DNA of 60,510 nucleotides from an uncultured Candidatus Saccharibacteria bacterium. Lineage in GTDB: Bacteria; Patescibacteriota; Minisyncoccia; Phycocordibacterales; SBAW01. Each line of letters starts with the position of its first letter. The first letter of the stretch is position 1. The notes beneath the pieces are model-generated. The model saw only the letters and a program-made list of their open reading frames with translations. It did no database searches and had not been told where the DNA came from. A program made the translations under genes and the position numbers. Where the stretch lies: NCBI GenBank assembly GCA_964457915.1, contig CAYWFM010000002.1, forward strand, positions 1 to 60,510, in the 5' to 3' direction. Positions 20,936 through 55,593 of the stretch are shown here, piece after piece.

Positions 20936-20999
20936 TCCGCCTTCGCATAAGCTTCGGCGGGACAATGTCCGCCGTGGCTCAAGCTATGGCGGGACGATG
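20936..20999 (+). repeat. two tandem 32-nt hairpin repeats abutting tRNA(CAT)-2
   Basis: TCCGCC-N14-GGCGGGAC(A/G)ATG occurs twice, at 20936-20967 and 20968-20999. The stem arms are conserved and the loops differ. Confidence 0.75.
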
Positions 21000-21072
21000 T
21001 CGGCGTAGCTCAGGTAGTTAGAGCATGGGACTCATAAACCCAAGGTCGGAGGTGCAAGTCCTCCCGCCGACA
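20999..21072 (+). tRNA. tRNA with CAT anticodon (elongator Met or lysidine-modified Ile2)
   Basis: Acceptor GTCGGCG/CGCCGAC, D arm GCTC-AGGTAGTTA-GAGC, anticodon loop CTCATAA, T arm GGAGG-TGCAAGT-CCTCC, discriminator A. No CCA is encoded. Confidence 0.85.
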
Positions 21073-21234
21073 CAAAAACGAAGTTTTTGAGCGCGAGCAA
21101 AATGCCTGCGCATTTTGCGTGGAGGACTTGCAAGGCACAGCGATGCTGAGCCAGCGGGCGAGGCCGCGAGCCGGGGCCGAGAAAATTTTGCTGCAGCAAA
21201 ATTATTCGTGGCCAAGCCTCCCGCCGACACAAAA
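21073..21234 (+). mobile_element. tRNA-3'-end-associated conserved non-coding element, copy 1 (ends in an 18-nt duplicate of the tRNA 3' end)
   Basis: Direct repeats CCTCCCGCCGACACAAAA at 21060-21077 and 21217-21234. The 78-nt core at 21139-21216 is 69/78 identical to 31230-31307. A perfect 20-nt palindrome lies at 21184-21203. Confidence 0.6.
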
Positions 21235-21339: not shown

Positions 21340-24300
21340 ATGCACCATATTTTTCATACAACAAGGCCGCTGGTGTTCAAAATAGCAATACTTTTTGTTA
21401 TTTTTTCGATAGCTTTTTCTCCTGTGGTATCTGTGTATGCGCAAACGACCACGCCAATAAGCGAATTGCCACCGCCTTCAGTGGCGACGAACACGCCAGA
21501 CACTCCAACTCTGTCACTGCCGGTAGATGCTGGTGCTTCAGAAAGAAATATTTCTCCTGTAAATTTTGAAGCACCTACTCCACAAGTGCAGCCAGGCGCA
21601 CCCGGGGGTAATGAAAAGGCACTTGTCCCAGAATCGGCTGCTGCAGCCAACACAAACGAAGGCGCTGGTGTGGGGACTACTTTAAACAGAGCGGGCACCT
21701 TTTCAACCCAAAGTGCTGTCGATGAGACAGATAGTTTTAGTGGACTAGTCTCCACTCAAAATCCTTCGGGTCCTGACTATATGTCTGGTGCCGTAACATA
21801 CTCAGTACCTATAGCGATACCTCCTGGGCGCAATGGTATGCAGCCTAACGTGCAACTCACGTATAACAGTCAAAGGGCAGATCAATCTTCCATCGTCGGC
21901 TACGGGTGGGAATTGTCCATACCATATATTCAACGTCTTAATAAACAGGGGTGGGATAGTATCTATGATGAAGACGATTACTATTCGTCATTGAGTGGTG
22001 ATTTGGCAACCACCTCTGTCCTTGGGACTTTTCAGACCCGATCTGAGGATGGGCAGTTTCTCCAATACACATATGCAACCACCACCGGTTGGACAGTCAA
22101 AGATAAGAAGGGAGTAGTATACACTTTCGGTTCAAGCACCCTTGCTCGACAAGACGATCCTGCGAATCCCTCACATGTTTATAAATGGATGCTTACAGAA
22201 GTGCGTGACAGTAACGGCAATTTCGTTACCTATCAATATATTAAAGATGGTAACCAGATATATCCCTCAACCATTACCTATACCAATTCTGCTTCATCGA
22301 CAGGTATATTTAGTATCGAATTTTCACGGGAATCGCGACCAGATAATGCAACTTCCACCTACCTTGGTGGCTTTGGTGTAAAAAGTGCATATCGTATTTC
22401 TGAAATTATTTCCAAGGTTAACGGTGTGTGGACTCAAAAATACACCCTTGCATATTTAGCGGGTGATAATGGGCGGCGCTCGCTGCTCGCAGCTGTCACA
22501 CAATCAGGCCAAGATGAAAAGGGCGTGCTTACCACACTGCCGCCCACCACGTTTAATTATCAGTCTTCAACTACGACCAAGGGGTGGGTGGAGAATCCTC
22601 AATGGGGACTTCCTATCGGTTTAGCTTTGCCGAGCGTTTTCCTTTCTGATTACTCTGGCGACGGGTTGCTAGATGTAATTTATCAGCTAGATGATCTCGC
22701 TGATTCGCCAAACGCTCATGCAAAACTCAACCTAGGAACGGGTAACTGGAGTGAAGCCTCTACGACATGGTACGAGCCGGGGTATATGGGTGTTCCTGGT
22801 TGGCGCATGGGCGACATGAACGGTGATGGTTGGTCAGATGCTGTTTATAGTTCAGACGACCCCATGTTCACTTTTAATCGAGTATATATAAACGTTGGGG
22901 CAGGATGGGTGCTTAGCACGAGCACGGTGCCTATACCGTTTAATAACGCAAAAAGTACATTCCTTATTGATGTAAACGGTGATGGTCTTTCTGATGCGGT
23001 ACAGTCGTATACAAGTGGGCAAGAGATTTTGCAATATAATCGTGTGTTTATTAACGATGGAAACGGTGGTTGGATGGATGAAAGTACCACAACATGGCAA
23101 ATGCCCCCACTATATATGAATGCATACGGCAATCGTATGTTTGATGTGAATGGTGACGGTCTGCCAGACATCTTGCGCAAAGATAATACCACTGGTGACA
23201 ATCGGACTTATATAAACACAGGGCATGGATGGATATATGACGAAGCATGGAGCCATTTGCCGCGATTAGTGGATCCCGGAGCGTGGTTCATTGATGTTAA
23301 TGGAGACGGTATTCCAGACATACTATTTTCGGCCGACTATGGTGGCACGGCACAGTACGAGGAGGCATATATAGGTGATGGGTATGGGGGTTTTAACTTA
23401 GACACAGGATGGGTGCCACCTTTGCGATTGATGGGAAAGTACAACATGCCGGTTGACCTGAACGGGGATGGTATGCCAGACATGCTCGATTCATTTAATC
23501 TGACGGTTCGGCTTAATAAAGCTCTCAAGGCAGATCTTCTCTCGCAAGTCACGACACCAACGGGGGCAAAAACGTCATTCGGATATAAAATGACCACCGC
23601 GTACCGCGACGTGTCGGGGGGTATGCTCAATCCGCATTTGCAATATCCATTACTTACCGTTAACACGATCACGACGAATGATGGATTTGGGAATGTAGCC
23701 ACAACTACCTATGAATACAAGGATGGAGTTAACTACTATGCGAGCGCTTTTGATCATCAGTTAGGGGGATTTGGTCTTGTGACCAAGACGGATACTTTTG
23801 GGAATGTCACCAAAACATATTTTCACACCGGTGGTGGTACTGATGCGGCGCACGGCGAATATGCAGACTCGCGATATAAAATAGGGAGGGCGTATCGGAC
23901 AGAGGTGTATGATGACGCCAACCGTCTGTATAGCAAAACCATATATAGATGGGACAGTACTCCCGTGAGTACTAATGCAGCTTTTGTGTATCTGGCGCAA
24001 GCTGTTGAATCATCCTATGACGGTGGGTCCACACACAAAGATAGTGCCGAGCAATATACGTATGACTCCACAGGGAACCTTACACTTAAAAAACAATATG
24101 GGCAGGTACAAGGGAATGATGATGGGACATATGGCGATGTGGGGTCTGATCTTGTATCAACCACGTACACCTATGCGGCTAACGGATCGACCGCAACAGG
24201 TTTTTTGGCTAGCGCTTTAGTGCAGGATCAGAGTAGTACTAAAGTCCGCGAAGCTCGCTACTACTATGACAATCTCTCTTTAGGTAGTGTAACCGTTGGC

Positions 24301-27300
24301 AATCAAACCAAAGGGGAGGATTGGATATCAGGCTCACTGTATGCCTCTACTACTAAGACCTATGGCATGTATGGATTTGTGGTGGGAGCGACAAATCAGA
24401 GTGGAGGGGTGACGACGTATGTGCCGGACACGTACTACTTGTACCCAGCCACTACCACTAATCCGCTGAACCAATCGACGAGCTACCAGTATAACTATGC
24501 TCTCGGAAAGGTGATACGTGCTGTAGATCCTAATGGCAGCGTGAGTACGACGACCTATGATGGATTAGGCAGACCTCTTTTTATTGGAGTTACAGATCCA
24601 CAAACTGGCGCTTTAGTAACACGCACCGTGTACGCATATACCGATAGTGCTACGCCAGGGGGCACTAAAGTTGCACAAACCGACTACCAAACAGCCGCGA
24701 CGAGCACGGCAACCTATACCTATTTTGATACCCAAGGTAAGCCAGTCCAAAAAAGAGTCCAGGTGGGTGGGAATAATACGTACGCGATTACTGACACTAT
24801 ATACAACAGGCTTGGATTGGTTGGTTTGCAGAGTTTGCCATACTTTGCCTCAAGTACCGGCCGGACAGGCGCCACCACAACAATCGCTTTGTACTCGACA
24901 TACTTCTACGATGCTCTTTGGAGAGTGATAAAAGTAACTGATGGAGTCGGAAGCACTACCTATACATATAAACCTTGGCAGACGACTGTTGTAGACCCTC
25001 GCAGTAACCCAAAACTACTGCAGTATGATGCGTATAAAAATTTAGCAACGGTGGTTGAGTTTAACGCCACCTCTACAGGCACTACTACGTATGCCTATGA
25101 TGCGAGCAATAATCTAGTGAATGTTACTGATGCGCAAGGTAACACTCGTGCGTTTACGTATGATGGGCTAGGGAGGCGGACATCAGCACAAGATTTACAT
25201 GCGCCAGGCGACCCAACTTTCGGCACATGGGCGTACGTTTATGACGCTGCAAATCTTCGCCAGTCGGTGGATCCAAAAGGTCAGGTGGTCAATTACACTT
25301 ACGATGTGCTCAACCGCCCACTTACCGAAGATTACACAGGCTCGCCCGGCACTGAGGTACTCAATACCTATGACAGCTGCTCGAAAGGTATAGGGCAGCT
25401 CTGTGCAGCAAGTTCTACCTCGGCCTACATAACCTACACATACAACCCGCTCGGGTTGCGCGCGAGCGAAACAGCAAAGATTGTGGGTACTACTACGACG
25501 TTTACTACGTCATATCTCTATGACCAAATCGGGAATCAAACATACATAACCTATCCCGACGGATCAAAAGTGCAGTATGTATATACCTCAGGTAATCAGA
25601 TAGATGCTGTGTTTGAAAAAGAAGGAGGTGTGGGCACCGCAACCACTACTATAGTGAGCAAATTCACCTACGCTCCTACGGGGGATATTGCCACCGTGCA
25701 ATATGGCAACGGAGCAACTACTACCAATAGGTATGATGCAAACACTCTGTACAGATTGGCTAGCAGAGTAACCGCAACACCGACCGCTGGGCGTGCACAA
25801 GATCTGACCTATACCTACGACACGGTGGGGAATATCACCCAAATCACGGACGCTTCAAACTCTGCGACCAACAAAGTAGTTAGATATGCATATGACGCTC
25901 TCAATCGACTCACCGCAGCATCAACGACCAGTGCAACAACAACCCCTGATTACAGCTATAGCTATACCTATGACAAACTCGGTAACATCACGAGCGGGCC
26001 CGCGGGTGTATATGCATACTTGGGCAATGTTGGCTCTACCTATGCAAACCCACATGCGCTAACGGCGCTCTATGTAGCTACTTCAACGCGACTTGCAGAT
26101 ACTATTGCGACCTCAACTATTCTTCTTGAGTCTACATCAACGAATATATCTTCCGGCCTTACAGGCACGACCACAAAAACATGGGTGCACCCGACAGTAT
26201 CAAGCAAGGCGCTCGTGGTTCTTTCTGCAGAAATCCTTGGGCATGTTGTCGGAGGAGGGTTTGTGGGATCTTCAACATGGAACGGGAGCCCCCTGGGCCG
26301 TATTCGGTATACTCGTAATGGAGTTATTAACACAGAGGTGTGGTATACCGTCGCTACGACAAGTGGCCCAGGTGTCTTATCGGTAAATATTACGGGAGAC
26401 TCAGATGCTATCAAACTCAACGCTGCATCTTTTGTGGGGGTTGCGACAACTTCACCCTTGGTCGCCTCGAATGTAGTCGGGGGGAGTAGTGGGAATCCGC
26501 CAATTGCGCTCCCTATGACCCCTAAAAATGCTCTGGTGGTGGCTGTGCTCACCCGCAACTCAACCACCAGTGCTACAACCAATCGCACTGCTATTAGTAA
26601 TGACACAACAGGCCCGATACTGAGCGCATCGAGTTATCAACTGGCGACCACTAGTGGGACGACTACTGACACTTACACTGGGGCGGCGGCACAAGGTTGG
26701 ACTATGATCATGGTCGCGTTTAAAGCGGCTACTACGACTGTGTTTGGTGGCTTTGGTACAACAACGGCTACCACCACCCTTGTGTATGACCAAAATGGCA
26801 ACTTGCTTAGTGAGGGTGTCTCTACCTACGCATGGGACTACAAAAACAGATTGGTTCAAAGTGGAGACGGAGTCGCAACTTCGACCTATGGGTATGACCA
26901 GAATGGTACTCGAGTAAAAACAGTTGAAAAAGGATATACGACTCTGTATCCAAACAAGCTTTACAATGTGATGCTTGGAGGAAACGCAACCACCACCAAG
27001 CACATCTTCGCAAACAATCTGCTGCTCGCGACTGTTGAGAACATCGCGGCGCCACTCAGCGGTTGGGTGAGTACTTCGACCATCGCCATCGCTGCAACCT
27101 CAACTAATGTTACGGTTGGTTTCGCAAGCTCCACGGTGCGCACATGGACGCATATGGTCACAGCGCCAAACTCGCTGGTAGTGTTGTATGCAGATATTCT
27201 CCAAAATACTGCTACAGGCACGGTGAGCTCTGCCACACTCAATGGCGCCGCCTTCACAAAGGCTACCTCGACGCTCCAGGGGACCATGGACGCCGAGCTT

Positions 27301-28683
27301 TGGTACGTACTAGCGATCACCTCAGGATCAAAAACAGTAGTTGTAAATGTGGCGGGTAATACCAATGCAATTAAACTCGCCGCTGCCTCCTTCATCGGCA
27401 CAACTCTCGTTAATCCTCTGGGCAACACCACAAAAGCAGTAGGCACCACCGGCTCTCCCACCATCAGCATCACCCCTGCGGCTAAAACCGACCTCCTAAC
27501 GACAACACTCTCGCGCAATGGCACGAGTGATGCTACCTCTACCGCTCTTTCAATATACAAAGACAACCTCATCGCAACCCTGGGCGCTGCAAGCTACCAG
27601 TTTGCCACCACCACTAAGGCATATACCGACACCTACCTCGGTGCGACAACCACCAACTGGGCTTTGGTAGCAGCCACCTTCAAACCTGCCACCACTACCG
27701 TAGGAGCAGTAGCAACCTCCACCCTGCGCTACTTTGCTACCGACAATCTCTCTGGCGCCAACGTTGTCATGGATACCACAGGCACCATAGTCGAAACTCT
27801 CGACTACTACCCATATGGTGCGCTGCGTATTGATACCAAAGCAGGAGCCTATACCGGAGAGAAGCGTAAATATGCAGGTACTGAGTACGACGCGGGTAGT
27901 GGATTAAACTACATGAATGCGCGTTACTACGAGGGGTCTCGCGGTCAGTTCCTTTCACAGGACCCTGTGTTCTGGGAAGTGGGCCAGACTAAGGACGGCA
28001 TAAGAGCTTTATCAGACCCTCAATCAATGAACAGTTATTCTTATGCGGGCAATAATCCGATCACTCAAAGTGACCCAAATGGCCGTTGGTATAAGGAGTT
28101 CGTAACTGGCCAACAATCCTTCTCGAGTTTCTATGGTGAAGTCGGCGAAGCGGCAAATTATCTTGGTCAAAGTAGTCCGGCATGGAATTATGCAATGAAT
28201 AATCCATATACAACCGGAGCGGTAGTTGGAGTGGGTTCAGGACTTGCAGCATACGGTGCGTCAGCAGCACTAACATCACTTAGCGTAGATGCTCTTTCGG
28301 GAATCGGAACTCGATCCATGGGAAATCTGTCTAGATTGGAGTCTCTTCCTCAAACAACGCAAGTACCGGGTAAGCTTGATCTTCTTTCACAACAAACTGG
28401 AAAATCTGTTGGCCAATTACTACAAGAAGCTTCACAAAGCGGTAAACCTTACATCGATTTCCGTAACGGGGGGAATATAAATATCCTTAATCAAAGCGGA
28501 TTGCCAAACACACTTAGTCGCATTACGACAAATCCTCAAATTACAAAAATTATTTCAGCTGGGCGTATGGAAACCTCGCAGGTGTCAAATCTGGTAAGAT
28601 CGGGTAACATGCAAGGTCTCCAATCAACCTTGTCGGGCCTGTCTAAGGTTCTTGGACAAATATCAAAATTATTGTCAAAATAG
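21340..28683 (+). CDS. RHS/YD-repeat polymorphic toxin (WapA/TcB-TcC-like) with Sec signal, SpvB-like N-domain, FG-GAP/VCBS repeats, RHS core and variable C-terminal domain
   Basis: 2447 aa. It has a signal-like N-terminus (IAILFVIFSIAFSPVVSVYAQ), an SpvB-type motif (SGAVTYSVPIAIPPGRNGMQPNVQLTYNS), repeated D.NGDG.(P/S)D motifs and many YD repeats (YTYDGLGR, YAYDALNRL). The RHS core reads YYPYGALR...GTEYDAGSGLNYMNARYYEGSRGQFLSQDP...DPNGRW. Confidence 0.9.
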   Translation: MHHIFHTTRPLVFKIAILFVIFSIAFSPVVSVYAQTTTPISELPPPSVATNTPDTPTLSLPVDAGASERNISPVNFEAPTPQVQPGAPGGNEKALVPESAAAANTNEGAGVGTTLNRAGTFSTQSAVDETDSFSGLVSTQNPSGPDYMSGAVTYSVPIAIPPGRNGMQPNVQLTYNSQRADQSSIVGYGWELSIPYIQRLNKQGWDSIYDEDDYYSSLSGDLATTSVLGTFQTRSEDGQFLQYTYATTTGWTVKDKKGVVYTFGSSTLARQDDPANPSHVYKWMLTEVRDSNGNFVTYQYIKDGNQIYPSTITYTNSASSTGIFSIEFSRESRPDNATSTYLGGFGVKSAYRISEIISKVNGVWTQKYTLAYLAGDNGRRSLLAAVTQSGQDEKGVLTTLPPTTFNYQSSTTTKGWVENPQWGLPIGLALPSVFLSDYSGDGLLDVIYQLDDLADSPNAHAKLNLGTGNWSEASTTWYEPGYMGVPGWRMGDMNGDGWSDAVYSSDDPMFTFNRVYINVGAGWVLSTSTVPIPFNNAKSTFLIDVNGDGLSDAVQSYTSGQEILQYNRVFINDGNGGWMDESTTTWQMPPLYMNAYGNRMFDVNGDGLPDILRKDNTTGDNRTYINTGHGWIYDEAWSHLPRLVDPGAWFIDVNGDGIPDILFSADYGGTAQYEEAYIGDGYGGFNLDTGWVPPLRLMGKYNMPVDLNGDGMPDMLDSFNLTVRLNKALKADLLSQVTTPTGAKTSFGYKMTTAYRDVSGGMLNPHLQYPLLTVNTITTNDGFGNVATTTYEYKDGVNYYASAFDHQLGGFGLVTKTDTFGNVTKTYFHTGGGTDAAHGEYADSRYKIGRAYRTEVYDDANRLYSKTIYRWDSTPVSTNAAFVYLAQAVESSYDGGSTHKDSAEQYTYDSTGNLTLKKQYGQVQGNDDGTYGDVGSDLVSTTYTYAANGSTATGFLASALVQDQSSTKVREARYYYDNLSLGSVTVGNQTKGEDWISGSLYASTTKTYGMYGFVVGATNQSGGVTTYVPDTYYLYPATTTNPLNQSTSYQYNYALGKVIRAVDPNGSVSTTTYDGLGRPLFIGVTDPQTGALVTRTVYAYTDSATPGGTKVAQTDYQTAATSTATYTYFDTQGKPVQKRVQVGGNNTYAITDTIYNRLGLVGLQSLPYFASSTGRTGATTTIALYSTYFYDALWRVIKVTDGVGSTTYTYKPWQTTVVDPRSNPKLLQYDAYKNLATVVEFNATSTGTTTYAYDASNNLVNVTDAQGNTRAFTYDGLGRRTSAQDLHAPGDPTFGTWAYVYDAANLRQSVDPKGQVVNYTYDVLNRPLTEDYTGSPGTEVLNTYDSCSKGIGQLCAASSTSAYITYTYNPLGLRASETAKIVGTTTTFTTSYLYDQIGNQTYITYPDGSKVQYVYTSGNQIDAVFEKEGGVGTATTTIVSKFTYAPTGDIATVQYGNGATTTNRYDANTLYRLASRVTATPTAGRAQDLTYTYDTVGNITQITDASNSATNKVVRYAYDALNRLTAASTTSATTTPDYSYSYTYDKLGNITSGPAGVYAYLGNVGSTYANPHALTALYVATSTRLADTIATSTILLESTSTNISSGLTGTTTKTWVHPTVSSKALVVLSAEILGHVVGGGFVGSSTWNGSPLGRIRYTRNGVINTEVWYTVATTSGPGVLSVNITGDSDAIKLNAASFVGVATTSPLVASNVVGGSSGNPPIALPMTPKNALVVAVLTRNSTTSATTNRTAISNDTTGPILSASSYQLATTSGTTTDTYTGAAAQGWTMIMVAFKAATTTVFGGFGTTTATTTLVYDQNGNLLSEGVSTYAWDYKNRLVQSGDGVATSTYGYDQNGTRVKTVEKGYTTLYPNKLYNVMLGGNATTTKHIFANNLLLATVENIAAPLSGWVSTSTIAIAATSTNVTVGFASSTVRTWTHMVTAPNSLVVLYADILQNTATGTVSSATLNGAAFTKATSTLQGTMDAELWYVLAITSGSKTVVVNVAGNTNAIKLAAASFIGTTLVNPLGNTTKAVGTTGSPTISITPAAKTDLLTTTLSRNGTSDATSTALSIYKDNLIATLGAASYQFATTTKAYTDTYLGATTTNWALVAATFKPATTTVGAVATSTLRYFATDNLSGANVVMDTTGTIVETLDYYPYGALRIDTKAGAYTGEKRKYAGTEYDAGSGLNYMNARYYEGSRGQFLSQDPVFWEVGQTKDGIRALSDPQSMNSYSYAGNNPITQSDPNGRWYKEFVTGQQSFSSFYGEVGEAANYLGQSSPAWNYAMNNPYTTGAVVGVGSGLAAYGASAALTSLSVDALSGIGTRSMGNLSRLESLPQTTQVPGKLDLLSQQTGKSVGQLLQEASQSGKPYIDFRNGGNINILNQSGLPNTLSRITTNPQITKIISAGRMETSQVSNLVRSGNMQGLQSTLSGLSKVLGQISKLLSK

Positions 28684-28687
28684 CTAT

Positions 28688-28972
28688 ATGGATACCGTTA
28701 AAAAACTAATCGATTCGTTTTTAGGTCAGGAAATAACCCTTGATGATTTTTTTAGTTCCATTAGTAAGTTTTACGCGCCCGATAGTCTAGAATGGAAGAA
28801 TTTGACCCAAGAGGAACAAGACTTCATATATGAAATCTATGAAAAGGCAACGTATGCTGCCGACGGGCTTTCCAAAGCTGACCCTGATAGAAAATATGGA
28901 GTTATCGATCAAGATGACTTCAAGAAATGGCTAGGTGAAATAAAAGAGAAGAATATCCAGTTCTGGAAATAG
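28688..28972 (+). CDS. small acidic protein immediately downstream of the RHS toxin (candidate immunity protein)
   Basis: 94 aa from the ATG at 28688, 5 nt after the RHS stop. It is AT-rich like the toxin tail. The function is assigned from position only. Confidence 0.5.
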   Translation: MDTVKKLIDSFLGQEITLDDFFSSISKFYAPDSLEWKNLTQEEQDFIYEIYEKATYAADGLSKADPDRKYGVIDQDDFKKWLGEIKEKNIQFWK

Positions 28973-28979
28973 ATCGATA

Positions 28980-29210
28980 ATGAAATACAGTGAATTTGCC
29001 CTGCCTTTACTAGCATTTGCATTAGGGGTTTGGCTTTTGATCCAGATTAAAAATGAAGTGGAAACAGGTGCACTTCGATTGAAAAGTGGAGGAAAAACTT
29101 ATCGAAAGGAACACCCAAATCAGTTTTTATTTGGAATAGTAATACAGAGTGTAATCGCAGGAATTCTCATCATATATCCGCTGGTGCATTTTTCGTTTCT
29201 TTTTCTTTAA
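28980..29210 (+). CDS. small two-TM membrane protein (alternative immunity candidate)
   Basis: 76 aa with two hydrophobic helices (LPLLAFALGVWLLI; FLFGIVIQSVIAGILIIYPLV). It starts 8 nt after the previous stop. Confidence 0.4.
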   Translation: MKYSEFALPLLAFALGVWLLIQIKNEVETGALRLKSGGKTYRKEHPNQFLFGIVIQSVIAGILIIYPLVHFSFLFL

Positions 29211-30169
29211 GTGAGAACAGTGGCACATCTTTCATCTTTCTTTTGCTTGATCCAATCATAGAATTGAAATCCATTACACTGATTCGAGTGCCACCTGTCT
29301 TTTTCCAAAATTGAGCCATTCGTTCAGCCCACTCGATTTCAGTAGTGATTTTGTATTCAATCTTTGTAGTTTCGATCTCTCCATCGTCATTTCGTTCTCC
29401 AGATTTTACAGGAACATAGCCGTGTGGCTCGACTAGATTCTTGTAGTAGACAACATGGTCGACAAAGTCTAAGAAGAATTGCCGATATGTCTCGAAGTCT
29501 TTGCATTGTTGAAGTCGTACCCTGATCTCATCGCAGTATTGAGCAATACTCAGTTCGATCGCTGCTGGTTTATGTAGTAAGGGTATCCGCTTTACCAGAT
29601 CCAACTTCTCGTTAGCCAGTTCACTAATCTCCTTATCGTATTCAGCGCTCTTTTTTGCATACTCTGCCCGTTCGGCACCACCATTAGCATAGAGTTCAAG
29701 AATTCGTTTTTTTAGCAATACTGATAGCTCTTAGTCTGGTTTCTATCTTTCCGAGATGGCGCTGTAGTCGCATTTGAGATGCGCGTCCATCACTTTTGAA
29801 GATATCCATGTGCTTCTTGAGTGTCTCCGGTTTTACAACTTCTTCTCTAAAAAGTTTGTAAACTTTCTCCTCAAGGATTGATGTTTTTATTTCATTGTTG
29901 TCGCACTTCCGAAGATTCGACTTTTTGGAATGCTGTAATATTCGGATTGTCCAATTGCACTTGTACGATGCTCGGTGATAGACCTTGTGCGGAGTACTTC
30001 GTTTATCGACGTAATAGCGGCGGTATGCATAACAGCTTCCGCCGCATCCTCCACACCGAATCAGGTTTGATAGTAGTTGCGGTATTCGTGGGTTGCGATA
30101 TTTCTTCCTGTAGTAGTCAATTTTATCTTGAACCTTATTGAACAACTCCTTGGAGATAATCGGAGGCAC
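29170..30169 (-). pseudogene. large serine recombinase remnant (5'-truncated, frameshifted)
   Basis: Two overlapping - ORFs (29696-30169 and 29170-29718) together encode a recombinase-domain end, a Zn-ribbon (CGGCGGSCYAYRRY...YKCN) and a coiled-coil tail. The N-terminal resolvase catalytic domain is absent, and an in-frame TAA lies immediately upstream of 30169. Confidence 0.6.
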
Positions 30170-30296
30170 TTAAAAAGCAATTACAAGCAAGCACCAGGGA
30201 TCCGGGTAGACCTAAAATATTATGACACAAAACATGTAAATAAAAGGTGACTGACCCTATTGACTATTGATGGCTTTGGAGGGAAATGAAGAGTTT

Positions 30297-30536
30297 TTAT
30301 CTAAATAGTTCTAAAAAACCAAATCCTAGCAAAATAATAGACACTAACACGATTACCATTCGAACATAGACGCTATCCATGTTGTCTGCTTGAAACTTGA
30401 ATACTTTCAAACCAGTTCGAAGATAACAATGATTAAGAAGTTTAATCGAGATTTGTATAAAAGTATTTGAAAAGATAAGTAATAGTAAAGCAATTGTGAT
30501 GTTTATAAGTGAATCTAAATTATTTAATGTAAACAT
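30297..30536 (-). CDS. small hydrophobic ORF in AT-rich DNA
   Basis: 79 aa with two hydrophobic segments and no recognisable family. Confidence 0.25.
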   Translation of the reverse strand: MFTLNNLDSLINITIALLLLIFSNTFIQISIKLLNHCYLRTGLKVFKFQADNMDSVYVRMVIVLVSIILLGFGFLELFR

Positions 30537-30676
30537 ATATTTTGCTATTAAAAATTAATCAGTCCTAACATCTTATGATCTCACGCCGATTCTACCACTT
30601 TAGTGGGGACAGATATCAATAAGTGACGAAAATTGTTGTGTATACTCAAGAGAGTTATTAGGTAAACGTATACGAT

Positions 30677-30922
30677 ATGCATACAAGACTTGTGATGGCG
30701 AGTGCAGGGGCCGCGCTACTACTTACTATGGGGGTCACGACAATAGCAGCAGCACAGATTACGCCAGGAGGTGGGGATGTGCCAGGGACTACTCAAGATT
30801 GTAAAAATGGCGGCTGGGTCACTCTGAGCGATGGTTCATCGTACTTTAAAAACCAGGGTGACTGTGTAAGTTATGTCGCTACTGAAGGCAGTAATCTCGC
30901 TGCCGGAAACCCTGTCCTCTAG
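30677..30922 (+). CDS. small secreted protein
   Basis: 81 aa with a signal-peptide-like N-terminus (MASAGAALLLTMGVTTIAAAQ) and two Cys. It is followed by a strong terminator. Confidence 0.5.
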   Translation: MHTRLVMASAGAALLLTMGVTTIAAAQITPGGGDVPGTTQDCKNGGWVTLSDGSSYFKNQGDCVSYVATEGSNLAAGNPVL

Positions 30923-30960
30923 GAGGGAGAAGAGTTTAAGTGCGTTTGTGGGCACAGTGA

Positions 30961-30994
30961 GCAAAAACACCTCCGTAGCAGGAGGTGTTTTTGC
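30961..30994 (+). terminator. rho-independent terminator
   Basis: GCAAAAACACCTCC-GTAGCA-GGAGGTGTTTTTGC followed by a T-rich tract. Confidence 0.8.
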
Positions 30995-31055
30995 TATTTA
31001 TTTTTTGACATTTTTGCGCTAGAATGCTCCTGCCTGCCCCTTGGGGCTGGCATTT

Positions 31056-31129
31056 GCAGTGGTAGCTCAACTGGTTAGAGCACCCGCCTGTCACGCGGGA
31101 GGTTGCGGGTTCGAGTCCCGTCCGCTGCG
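31056..31129 (+). tRNA. tRNA-Asp (GTC)
   Basis: Acceptor GCAGTGG/CCGCTGC, D arm GCTC-AACTGGTTA-GAGC, anticodon arm CCCGC-CTGTCAC-GCGGG, T arm GCGGG-TTCGAGT-CCCGT, discriminator G. No CCA is encoded. Confidence 0.9.
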
Positions 31130-31322
31130 CTAGCGATAAAACCGAGTAGTTTTTACTACTCGGTTTTGCGCTTATGCGGGCAGCGGGAGAAACTGAACTT
31201 CTTCAGTTTCGCCGGGACTTGAAAGCCGGAGCGATGCTGAGCCAGCAGGCGAGGCCGCGAGGCAGGGTCGTGAAAAATTTGCTGCAGCAAATTTATTCCT
31301 GGCCGAGTCCCGTCCGCTGCGC
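31130..31322 (+). mobile_element. tRNA-3'-end-associated conserved non-coding element, copy 2 (ends in a 19-nt duplicate of the tRNA-Asp 3' end)
   Basis: Direct repeats CGAGTCCCGTCCGCTGCGC at 31112-31130 and 31304-31322. The core at 31230-31307 matches 21139-21216. A perfect 20-nt palindrome lies at 31275-31294. Confidence 0.6.
31138..31167 (+). terminator. rho-independent terminator after tRNA-Asp
   Basis: AAAACCGAGTAGT-TTTT-ACTACTCGGTTTT. Confidence 0.75.
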
Positions 31323-53293: not shown

Positions 53294-53321
53294 TTGAAAT
53301 ACAGCCTGAAAAATGTATAGT
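53294..53321 (+). promoter_or_regulatory. sigma70-like promoter for tRNA-Gln
   Basis: TTGAAA (53294-53299), a 16-nt spacer, then TATAGT (53316-53321), about 42 nt upstream of the tRNA. Confidence 0.4.
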
Positions 53322-53363: not shown

Positions 53364-53437
53364 TGGGAGATCGTCTAATGGTAGGACAACAGACTCTGAA
53401 TCTGTTTATCTAGGTTCGAATCCTAGTCTCCCAGCCA
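53364..53437 (+). tRNA. tRNA-Gln (CTG), CCA encoded
   Basis: Acceptor TGGGAGA/TCTCCCA, anticodon loop CTCTGAA, T arm CTAGG-TTCGAAT-CCTAG, discriminator G, CCA at 53435-53437. Confidence 0.9.
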
Positions 53438-53823
53438 TCCTTCGCCCCTACGCCGCCAAGGCTTTGTAGGGCAAGCAAGCTTCGGAATGGCCTGGCCATC
53501 ACCATGCACTACGCGTACATACTTTGGAGCTCAAAATCTTCGAACTACTATTTCGGCTCAACCACCGATTTACGAAAGCGTTTGACTGAGCATAACAGTG
53601 GAAAATCCAAAGCAACAGCTCCATATCTACCGTGGAGGTTAGTTTGGTATGGAGCATTCGAAAACCGCCGGCTCGCCGAAGATTTTGAGCGGTATTTAAA
53701 GACAGGCTCTGGGAAAGCTTTCGCCTATAAACGCTTGGCCAATTCCGGAGTTTTGAAGAAGGATAAGTTTGAGTCCAAAAATGGTGTTACGAAGCTTTAG
53801 CGTAGTACACCTAGTCTCCCAGC
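53436..53823 (+). mobile_element. GIY-YIG gene cassette bounded by a 14-nt duplication of the tRNA-Gln 3' end
   Basis: CCTAGTCTCCCAGC occurs at 53422-53435 (inside the tRNA) and again at 53810-53823, 10 nt after the GIY-YIG stop codon. Confidence 0.5.
53504..53800 (+). CDS. GIY-YIG (URI/YhbQ-like) nuclease-domain protein
   Basis: 98 aa with the pattern YAYILWS...YYFGSTTDLRKRLTEHNSGK...W.LVWYGAFENRRLAEDFERYLK, which is the GIY...YIG...R...E/N pattern. Confidence 0.8.
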   Translation: MHYAYILWSSKSSNYYFGSTTDLRKRLTEHNSGKSKATAPYLPWRLVWYGAFENRRLAEDFERYLKTGSGKAFAYKRLANSGVLKKDKFESKNGVTKL

Positions 53824-53840
53824 TCGACAATTTGTAATAA

Positions 53841-54221
53841 GTGTGCTATTTTATAAATGGTAGTGTATGTAGATCTTCAACTAAAAGGTGCGCTGTGCCG
53901 AACATCCGAAACAAGAAACGGGATCCTTTAAAAGACGAGCAGCTTAAGGTGCTTTATCCAGAAGGGGTGGCTATTCTCGAATGCGACGATGGGATATGTC
54001 TCATCTGCCGACGAGACTCAGCATATGACAGGCAAATCATTGTATTTGGCGGCGAAGATTCAGCCGACAAAACTTCTGACTGTTGGTGGGTGGATTTGCA
54101 AGGAATACTGAAGGGAGAGTTTCTCGCCAGAAATACATCAATGATCAGGCGCGAACCGCTAGAATACAAAGCTAATGAAATGCTGTTGAGTGTGTCTATA
54201 CGGCTTACACTCAGTCTGTAA
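53841..54221 (+). CDS. hypothetical Cys-containing protein
   Basis: 126-aa ORF with an uncertain start (GTG at 53841, or GTG at 53895 behind AAAGG). No family is recognised. Confidence 0.3.
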   Translation: MCYFINGSVCRSSTKRCAVPNIRNKKRDPLKDEQLKVLYPEGVAILECDDGICLICRRDSAYDRQIIVFGGEDSADKTSDCWWVDLQGILKGEFLARNTSMIRREPLEYKANEMLLSVSIRLTLSL

Positions 54222-54318
54222 ATTTTGTTTATAACCCTAAGAGACCCCCAAACACAATCTCGCAGGTGACACCTGCTACAACAACCGTTACTCCCAGAGT
54301 GGCGGTTATTTTAATCTT

Positions 54319-54437
54319 GTTCCAACTTCCCTCCTTCGCCAAGGCTACGGGCGGGCGAGCTATCCTTCGAATCCTCTCAGGACCTACGGCCAGAGGGCCA
54401 GCTCGACTTTTTTATAAAAGTGTTGTAATTTTGTTTT
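54319..54437 (+). repeat. ~120-nt intergenic repeat, copy A
   Basis: It aligns with 55075-55194 and contains an identical 35-nt block, GGCTATCCTTCGAATCCTCTCAGGACCTACGGCCA. It ends in ACTTTTTTATAAAAGT(G/A)TTGTAATTT. Confidence 0.8.
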
Positions 54438-55052: not shown

Positions 55053-55074
55053 ATTCTGTTATTTACTCAAAACA

Positions 55075-55194
55075 GTTCCAACATCCCCCCTTCACTAAAG
55101 TTACGGACGGGCAGGCTATCCTTCGAATCCTCTCAGGACCTACGGCCATAGGGGCAGCTAGTGACTTTTTTATAAAAGTATTGTAATTTGTTTT
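55075..55194 (+). repeat. ~120-nt intergenic repeat, copy B
   Basis: See copy A. A third, partial copy of its 5' end (AAAACAGTTCCAACA(T/C)CCC) lies at 55499-55520. Confidence 0.8.
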
Positions 55195-55486: not shown

Positions 55487-55593
55487 ATTTCCTTTTCCAA
55501 AACAGTTCCAACACCCCACCCCCGCCCCCACGCCGCCAAGACTCTGCGGAGCAGTAAAGAAACTTTTTGAAGGTGGATTACGTTATCAGTCTC

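Follow-up and report, generated by a model that had tools for sequence, protein, structure and literature searches.

GIY-YIG nuclease cassettes at the 3' ends of tRNA genes in Patescibacteria: a Saccharibacteria tRNA-Gln locus and its relatives

How does a small nuclease gene come to stand between an intact tRNA gene and a second copy of that tRNA's 3' end? The question is raised by a tRNA-Gln locus in a contig of an uncultured Candidatus Saccharibacteria bacterium (CAYWFM010000002.1), of which we analyzed a stretch of 60,510 nucleotides, hereafter the window. Directly after position 74 of this tRNA, one of six tRNA genes within the window, lies a 388-bp unit whose single open reading frame (ORF) is a GIY-YIG nuclease gene; the tRNA itself stays intact. 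A preliminary description of the window had viewed the unit as a gene cassette inserted at the tRNA 3' end with a 14-nt target duplication. Our analysis supports the insertion and argues for a different origin of the repeat. In the reading that we favor, at a probability of about 0.6, the locus is a member of a widespread Patescibacteria family of selfish GIY-YIG cassettes that are aimed at tRNA gene ends and bring their own copy of the target with them.

The tRNA-Gln cassette and a survey of its relatives

The basic components of the locus, namely the intact tRNA-Gln, the 98-aa GIY-YIG ORF and the exact 14-nt repeat, had been recognized in the preliminary description and were recovered by ARAGORN, Rfam, Pfam and sequence search (Table 1). 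The repeated 14-mer, CCTAGTCTCCCAGC, consists of the 3' strand of the T-stem (CCTAG), the 3' strand of the acceptor stem (TCTCCCA), the discriminator G and C74. It is present in exactly two copies in the 60.5-kb window, where no further copy was found with up to two mismatches allowed (chance expectation, 0.26). The final two bases of the encoded CCA (53436-53437) double as the first two bases of the cassette, and the second copy begins 9 nt past the last base of the stop codon by its coordinates, not 10 nt as first reported. An Rfam search found no intron at the locus, and the nuclease gene has the tRNA 3' end on one side and the native flank on the other. No other paralogues of the nuclease were found within the window.

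Comparison with relatives shows that this arrangement is not accidental. A first search returned 437 homologues, all of them small, and those with a named source were overwhelmingly from Patescibacteria. We examined 80 loci from species-representative genomes, 80 from metagenomes and a few obtained by exact protein look-up, which came to 137 distinct loci after de-duplication (numbered here as L001 and so on); the majority come from metagenome-assembled genomes, and their taxon labels are doubtful in some cases. Upstream sequence of at least 330 nt was available for 113 loci; in 89 of them (79%) a tRNA on the same strand ends no more than 300 nt upstream, vs 17 of 663 control ORFs (2.6%) of the same loci. 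The gap between tRNA and gene is mostly 27-60 nt, with a median distance to the ATG of about 40 nt. Glutamine tRNAs predominate among the hosts (n = 96: Gln 57, Ser 15, Asn 12, Trp 6, Leu 2, and one each of Tyr, Cys, Glu and Met). In 73 of these 96 tRNA-adjacent loci (76%), a stretch of 10 nt or more from the local tRNA 3' end is repeated no farther than about 60 nt past the stop codon. Repeats are most often 14 nt long (35 of 73 loci), corresponding to tRNA positions 61-74, or 16 nt where CCA is encoded; of the 69 loci whose repeat reaches 12 nt or more, most have it starting directly after the T-loop.

The repeated 14-mer covaries with the local tRNA, reading CCTAGTCCCGCAGC in L002 and CCAGCCCGGGGAGCCA behind tRNA-Asn in L005. 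Because it changes with the tRNA across relatives, and because the window holds only the two copies, a chance match is ruled out. Insertion at the tRNA 3' end, as first proposed, is thus borne out by the frequencies of tRNA adjacency and of the repeat (79% and 76%). The preliminary description had also named an observation that would speak against its proposal, a nuclease family lacking tRNA adjacency or flanking repeats; the 137-locus survey found a family that has both.

The family also has a fixed layout, which across about 140 loci consists of the left 14-mer, a left end, the ATG and ORF, a right end and the right 14-mer, with a cassette size of ~350-390 bp and an ORF of ~90-105 aa. The left-end consensus is (T/C/A)ATCCTTCGCYAARGCTWCGGAATNGC, and that of the right end, GGTATTCCGAAGCTTTAGCG(A/T)AGGATA, is its imperfect reverse complement, so that the cassette is bounded by imperfect terminal inverted repeats of ~25 nt, each with two CTTCG subrepeats at a spacing of 11 nt. 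In many loci the final residues, G(V/S/I)PK(L/F), and the stop codon are encoded by the right end, which is equally conserved in the roughly one-third of loci in which the ORF stops upstream of it. As it is conserved even when non-coding, the right end must be an element at the level of DNA. We also considered an RNA helix formed between leader and trailer. The outer 14 nt of the left end and of the reverse-complemented right end agree at 8.46 of 14 positions within a locus and at 8.42 of 14 across loci (5.64 of 14 when shuffled), and complementarity no better within loci than across them leads us to reject such a helix. Ends that are alike without covariation argue instead for paired protein-binding sites.

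Variants of the ends were seen at several loci. A hairpin of ~29 nt (CCCTAC...GTAGGG, about 53447-53475) splits the left repeat in the window and is lacking in L096, L001 and L095; similar sequence stands at 55517-55555, and five loci (L006, L013, L039, L062 and L112) have other palindromic inserts of ~40 nt at the same spot. In L012, L017 and L141 there is no right 14-mer, and the right repeat runs straight into the apparent first base of a complete tRNA gene, which is tRNA-Glu in L012 and L017.

The lack of covariation bears on an explanation that does without mobility altogether, in which a housekeeping nuclease gene shares a transcript with the tRNA, and the downstream tRNA fragment, like the inverted repeats, acts as a signal for RNA processing or stability. 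Expression of the gene would fit this explanation. The site upstream of tRNA-Gln is the sole promoter-like site ahead of the cassette, and it therefore probably drives the tRNA and the nuclease gene jointly; since neither a promoter-like nor a terminator-like site was found between tRNA-Gln and the ATG, expression is likely to occur by read-through. Codon differences between the nuclease genes of the window and of L096 (17 synonymous, 3 non-synonymous) suggest that the gene is under purifying selection, which a housekeeping role would also predict, as it would the stable context of some members across many samples. Set against these points are two repeats that form no conserved RNA helix and the distribution of the cassette itself, which includes many different tRNA hosts, tandem and truncated copies, non-tRNA sites, presence and absence among close relatives, and a 97% identical cassette next to a neighboring gene that is only 61% identical. 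We consider a non-mobile nuclease highly improbable and regard this explanation as largely refuted already.

Ownership of the right 14-mer and evidence for movement

The two copies of the 14-mer differ in origin, as is most readily seen in near-identical cassettes at different sites. The window aligns with L001, L095 and L096 (96%, 91% and 97% amino acid identity, respectively) over a stretch that opens a few bases ahead of the left end and closes with the final base of the right 14-mer, beyond which the right flanks of all four are unrelated to one another. Two further loci of almost identical nucleotide sequence, L037 and L044, share the same extent, up to the end of the right 14-mer. No tRNA was found upstream of L001 or L095; their left 14-mers are CCGAGTCAGTCAGC and AGTAGAGGGCCAGC, and the right 14-mer in both is the tRNA-Gln end. 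A decayed tRNA upstream of L001 was considered and rejected: the region of the left 14-mer is far more diverged than the cassette and therefore represents a different site, not a decayed orthologue.

This asymmetry holds throughout the 19 loci that lie at non-tRNA sites. Compared with a library of tRNA ends, their left 14-mers match at 5-11 of 14 positions and their right 14-mers at 11-14 of 14, and the opposite pattern, a tRNA-like left copy with a different right copy, was not found among them (19 to 0). An Rfam search of 16 loci without an ARAGORN tRNA found no hidden tRNA beside the cassette. At these loci, almost every left 14-mer has AGC, AAC or CGC as its last three bases and is preceded by an RGTTC motif; the sites, GGTTCTAGACCGAGTCAGTCAGCCA among them, resemble a T-loop joined to a tRNA end. 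Cassettes behind real tRNAs can likewise have a foreign right copy. The tRNA-Asn genes of L004 and L098 end in CCTACCTGCGGAGC, and the right copy there is CCTACCCGAGGAGC, identical to the end of tRNA-Asn in L053; in L028 and L045 the right copy also keeps the variant of another genome.

These patterns indicate that the right 14-mer belongs to the element and the left 14-mer to the target. Since the right copy is tRNA-like at non-tRNA sites and donor variants are retained, the repeat is not a classical target-site duplication, which the mismatched left and right 14-mers rule out for at least 19 loci. The "target duplication" of the preliminary description is therefore better described as an element-borne copy. 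A symmetric model with 14-nt sticky overhangs at both ends was rejected as well; it predicts mismatches of both kinds, and only one kind was seen (19:0).

Much the same evidence bears on a cut-and-paste DNA transposon, in which a GIY-YIG transposase would act on the inverted-repeat ends and staggered cuts of 14 bp would produce the 14-nt duplication. The combination of inverted repeats with a direct repeat of sharply fixed length is what such a transposon would show, and the repeat fits the local tRNA in at least nine tRNA species, even inside one protein clade. However, the 14-mers differ at the 19 non-tRNA loci, the right one always being the tRNA-like copy, and near-identical cassettes have the right but not the left 14-mer in common. 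A true duplication would copy any target, yet donor-variant right copies stand behind real tRNAs. Moreover, the sole ORF is the GIY-YIG gene, and no known class of transposase (DDE, HUH, serine, tyrosine or Cas1) is encoded. We judge a transposon of this type to be quite unlikely.

Several observations indicate that the cassette has moved. The preliminary description had suggested a search for empty tRNA-Gln sites in relatives, and L176, a close relative, provides one: its tRNA-Gln, 100% identical to those of the window and L096, ends in ...CCCAGCC as in the window and is followed by unrelated DNA without a cassette. The tRNA and promoter region of L176 is 93% identical to that of the window, and the neighboring gene is 85% identical in nucleotide sequence (76% in amino acids). 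In L096, a more distant relative, the neighboring gene is 61% identical to that of the window at the amino acid level, whereas cassette identity reaches 97% for the protein and 93% for the DNA; better conservation of the cassette than of its flanks points to horizontal spread. Single protein clades (at least 75% identity) include Gln, Asn, Ser and Tyr sites. One locus, L130, has a tandem arrangement at positions 1290-2200 in which tRNA-Gln is followed by cassette A, a 14-mer, cassette B and another 14-mer, giving three copies of the 14-mer in all; the two cassettes are both complete and differ, cassette B coming from another protein subfamily. A further YhbQ-like GIY-YIG gene lies downstream of this array. 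Remnants of a second unit are present in L100, L031 and L041, and in the P0108 strains (L092/L094) the whole left flank, including the tRNA, has been swapped, the two versions parting at the left junction. Contig ends are often only a few hundred bases away from a cassette (13 of the 80 loci from genomes, for instance, have <500 nt upstream), which suggests that the cassettes break assemblies. A scan found no relatives in viral contigs, and carriage by phage is thus not backed.

Movement need not be the work of the nuclease. A direct repeat of a tRNA 3' end is a hallmark of integrase-driven islands, and the cassette could be integrated in trans by a site-specific recombinase of the host or a phage, with the nuclease as mere cargo. 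The right repeat, 14-mer and left repeat of a circular form would then make up an attP-like site that recombines with the tRNA 3' end. A carried 14-mer would suit crossover at an att core, the non-tRNA targets share chiefly their 3'-most 4-10 nt, and the predicted junction is present exactly in the tandem arrays. Like islands and prophages of the tyrosine-integrase type, the cassette stands at a tRNA 3' end with a direct repeat of that end at both borders, one copy being the element's own. In contrast to them, it has no integrase, measures 0.39 kb as opposed to kilobases, and has a repeat fixed at 14 nt, which would be unusually long for a core. The copy carried by an island normally rebuilds the tRNA, whereas the tRNA in front of a cassette has its original 3' end and the copy of the element is distal. 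No integrase, transposase or recombinase Pfam domain was found in the cassette or its annotated neighbors in seven distinct contexts, a search that covered these neighborhoods and not the genomes throughout, and the only conserved gene is the nuclease, which appears to be under purifying selection. A recombinase acting in trans is in our view an unlikely explanation.

The nuclease, its closest counterparts and a candidate mechanism

The 98-aa protein matches the Pfam GIY-YIG family PF01541 over residues 1-71 (E = 9e-17; 61.6 bits, with a cut-off of 22.6). In an alignment of 37 sequences, Y5, Y16 and E62 are invariant and conservation of R26, H30 and N31 is 90% or higher, so that the family keeps the catalytic Tyr/Tyr/Arg/His/Glu set; a basic block that follows the catalytic Glu, K-x-GSGK-x-FAYKR, is invariant as well. 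AlphaFold predicts a confident GIY-YIG core (pLDDT 83) with the order strand-strand-helix-strand-helix and a disordered tail, and Foldseek matches it to the UPF0213 protein BH0048 (1ZG2), Slx1 and the catalytic domain of I-TevI. By sequence and fold together, the nearest solved relatives are BH0048 (profile E = 1.8e-8, Foldseek E = 3.5e-4, about 30% identity), EF2693 (1YWL) and the nuclease domain of Slx1, with I-TevI farther away. No NCBIfam model claims or names the protein. The cassette nucleases form a tight clade of their own, comprising 12 clusters at 50% identity (E = 1e-30) inside 3,200 small relatives at E = 1e-10, and such tightness is unusual for proteins from lineages this deep. 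Stand-alone UPF0213/YhbQ proteins and the Slx1 domain are similar to the cassette nuclease in size and fold, although the C-terminal GSGKAFAYKR block is the cassette family's own. To our knowledge, no mobility, tRNA linkage or terminal repeats are associated with proteins of the UPF0213/YhbQ type.

The closest functional parallel is SegB of phage T4, a free-standing GIY-YIG homing endonuclease encoded in the T4 tRNA gene cluster (PMC2330249). Its 27-bp site opens with the T-arm motif GGTTCRANTCC and is cut just past CCAR at the tRNA gene 3' end; the enzyme cleaves the genes of many tRNA species, and it spreads selfishly (PMC2330249). In both systems a GIY-YIG gene lies among or behind tRNA genes, and the cut point of SegB corresponds to the join between cassette and tRNA. 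As with Seg-like free-standing homing genes, the cassette lies outside introns and inteins and varies in presence between related sites, being filled in the window and L096 and empty in L176, although these form an imperfect pair. The two also differ. SegB, a protein of phage origin, has an additional DNA-binding domain, whereas the cassette protein has 98 aa and is encoded in Patescibacteria chromosomes; SegB has no inverted repeats or reported partial tRNA copy and spreads via recombination between co-infecting phages. In the cassette family's own lineage, insertion sequences in the rRNA genes of CPR bacteria encode homing endonucleases, mostly of the LAGLIDADG type in group I introns, with a few GIY-YIG examples outside introns; tRNA is never mentioned in that report (0 occurrences; PMC11270868). 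Those nuclease genes likewise stand at structural RNA genes, but inside the rRNA genes themselves.

A different parallel concerns the logic of the ends. Elements of the IS200/IS605 group insert directly 3' of a specific target without duplicating it, and their right end carries its own cleavage sequence. They use an HUH enzyme (TnpA) that acts on single-stranded hairpins, their target is 4-5 nt long, and they have no inverted terminal repeats. The cassettes share this end logic and the format of a very small single-gene element, and they differ in combining a GIY-YIG enzyme with inverted repeats in place of an HUH enzyme, hairpins and a short target.

These comparisons are consistent with a model in which the nuclease, whose enzymology we infer from comparative evidence, would recognize the DNA that encodes the T-arm and cut at the tRNA gene end in the manner of SegB. 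Cutting at this position is proposed because the cut position of SegB coincides with the cassette-tRNA join and because the non-tRNA targets carry a similar GTTC motif. The unit of left repeat, gene, right repeat and 14-mer would be pasted or copied into the break. The 14-mer would then re-create the left-border sequence at the right border, the enzyme would see both edges alike, and like edges would permit release of the unit, leaving a scar-free empty site with an intact tRNA gene. The inverted repeats would serve as protein-binding ends and not as an RNA stem, and the gene, having no promoter of its own, would be read through from the promoter of the tRNA.

Several points weigh against the selfish-cassette reading and this mechanism. 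The sequence to the left of copy 2 (GGATA or GTACA) is unlike a T-loop, and equal cutting at both edges is thus putative. Proteins that are at least 75% identical have 14-mers matching each different tRNA type, despite a right copy that would always be carried along; new matches of this kind could come from recombination between cassettes or from occasional re-creation of the 14-mer from the target. The protein appears to fall in the UPF0213/Slx1 branch, outside the Seg/I-TevI branch. In the predicted structure it has no extra DNA-binding domain, with only two short helices past the catalytic core and then the disordered tail; a protein that appears to be a catalytic domain only would have no obvious module for reading a site of ~25 bp, whereas SegB has an additional domain. 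The filled and empty pair is not clean, as the right flank of the window is absent at the empty site of L176. Finally, the many identical P0088 proteins have one stable context in all places shown across samples. Given this single context and the fact that only the left flank is swapped in P0108, recent jumps are not common and movement is not rapid.

Other inserts around tRNA genes and what the cassettes may mean

The features of the locus and of two non-coding inserts elsewhere in the window are collected in Table 1.

Table 1. Features of the window at the tRNA-Gln locus and behind two other tRNA genes
Feature	Position	Strand	Basis or remarks
Promoter-like site TTGAAA-16-TATAGT, upstream of tRNA-Gln	53294-53321	+	10/12 consensus matches
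tRNA-Gln(CTG), intact	53364-53437 (ARAGORN), to 53434 (Rfam)	+	ARAGORN; Rfam tRNA, 67.5 bits
Left 14-mer, copy 1 (tRNA positions 61-74)	53422-53435	+	The target's own sequence; starts right after T-loop TTCGAAT
Left terminal inverted repeat and leader	53436-53503	+	CATCCTTCGCC ... AAGCTTCGGAATGGCC; alignments with relatives
GIY-YIG nuclease gene, stand-alone, 98 aa	53504-53800	+	Pfam match
Right terminal inverted repeat	53783-53809	+	GGTGTTACGAAGCTTTAGCGTAGTACA; encodes last 5 codons and stop; minus-strand match to left-end core
Right 14-mer, copy 2	53810-53823	+	Right edge of mobile unit; identity with L096, L001 and L095 ends here
Promoter-like site for downstream gene	53824-53852	+	Native flank, outside cassette
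Non-coding insert, ~143 nt, behind tRNA-Met (20999-21073)	21074-21233		17-nt tRNA 3'-end repeat at 21217
Non-coding insert, ~173 nt, behind tRNA-Asp (31056-31130)	31131-31322		19-nt tRNA 3'-end repeat at 31304

The inserts behind tRNA-Met and tRNA-Asp had been noticed in the preliminary description, which suggested that they might be decayed or non-autonomous relatives of the cassette. They are real, but the proposed kinship does not hold: they lack the cassette ends, having no terminal repeats in common with it, and their tRNA repeats are of other lengths. They are homologous to each other (...agcgatgctgagccagc.ggcgaggccgcgag...tttgctgcagcaaa...), each has an antisense copy of a T-arm, and they form a different family that has only the target region in common with the cassette. 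Similar inserts with an antisense T-arm are found in L003 and L082, and L074 has an extra non-coding insert.

The motif in the cassette leader was also said to recur, and it does. Its core, CCTTCGCYAARGCTWCGG, has four matches in the window, with 0.29 expected, at 20940, 54333 and 55089 and in the cassette's own right end (minus strand, 53789-53806); the three outside the cassette show that small repeats built from the cassette end motif exist in this genome. Two of them fall within an intergenic repeat of ~120 nt (54313-54431, 55067-55190 and 55499-55560) that starts with GTTCCAAC, holds the left-end core and ends in ...GGGCCAGC right before an AT-rich promoter-like stretch. AT-rich promoter-like sequence similar to that of 53824-53852 follows these repeats at 54403 and 55163, and the GTTCCAAC...CAGC type of sequence is the non-tRNA landing site of cassettes in L040, L080, L092 and L095. 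At 20936-20999, just upstream of tRNA-Met, two hairpins adjoin, and the loop of the first is the cassette end motif CTTCGC-ATAA-GCTTCGG. Elsewhere in the window, GC content falls to 0.40 over the 3 kb just upstream of tRNA-Asp (28001-31000; window average about 0.50), and a 2447-aa ORF lies just before this stretch (21340-28683). The LOOT RNA of Rfam (RF03000) was detected well over threshold (72-84 bits) a few kilobases from cassettes in L001 (1912-2034), L067 (5614-5740) and L080 (3670-3790).

A second, different small GIY-YIG gene stands directly upstream of the same tRNAs in L096 (1521-1887), L005, L010, L030, L063, L106, L114, L115, L132, L148 and L168. The stop codon of this gene is found 2-16 nt ahead of tRNA position 1 or within the first ~20 nt of the tRNA, and the gene is preceded by a partial copy of the tRNA 5' end (9-23 nt), in most cases with a GC-rich hairpin after it. 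This arrangement is the mirror image of the 3'-end cassette; no such gene was found upstream of the tRNA-Gln in the window. In L096, four GIY-YIG genes of three kinds are packed into 2.2 kb around one tRNA-Gln (532-2703) together with two extra tRNA 5' fragments, and this region is a hotspot of nuclease cassettes.

Our search of the full-text literature brought up no account of such GIY-YIG cassettes at tRNA 3' ends, whether from Patescibacteria or from other bacteria. We place the cassette with the free-standing homing-endonuclease kind, and there is a real chance that it represents a new class of mobile element. In its fullest form, which we put forward tentatively as a possibility short of even odds, this proposal holds that the cassettes are a new minimal class of mobile DNA. 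A GIY-YIG protein of ~100 aa would be its own transposase, binding the inverted repeats and cutting after the tRNA-end sequence at both borders; the 14-mer would be a portable copy of the target, allowing scarless excision and reinsertion behind any matching tRNA in otherwise unrelated genomes, and the second GIY-YIG family would mirror this at tRNA 5' ends, which would suggest that bracketing of tRNA genes is a general strategy in this lineage.

If the reading that we favor is correct, the tRNA genes of Patescibacteria are landing pads for nuclease cassettes of ~390 bp. An essential and universal gene would be targeted harmlessly, by insertion one base past the discriminator with a copy of the target brought along. 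The idea of the homing endonuclease would extend from phage tRNA clusters, as with SegB, to chromosomes across a vast uncultured radiation, and a single-domain GIY-YIG protein would drive an unreported element design that joins inverted repeats to an element-borne target copy. The cassettes would also help to account for assembly breaks and rearrangements beside tRNA genes in these genomes, and a 98-aa enzyme that reads tRNA-gene ends would be of interest to tool builders. With more than 130 regular loci available, biochemical tests can be designed straight from the sequences.

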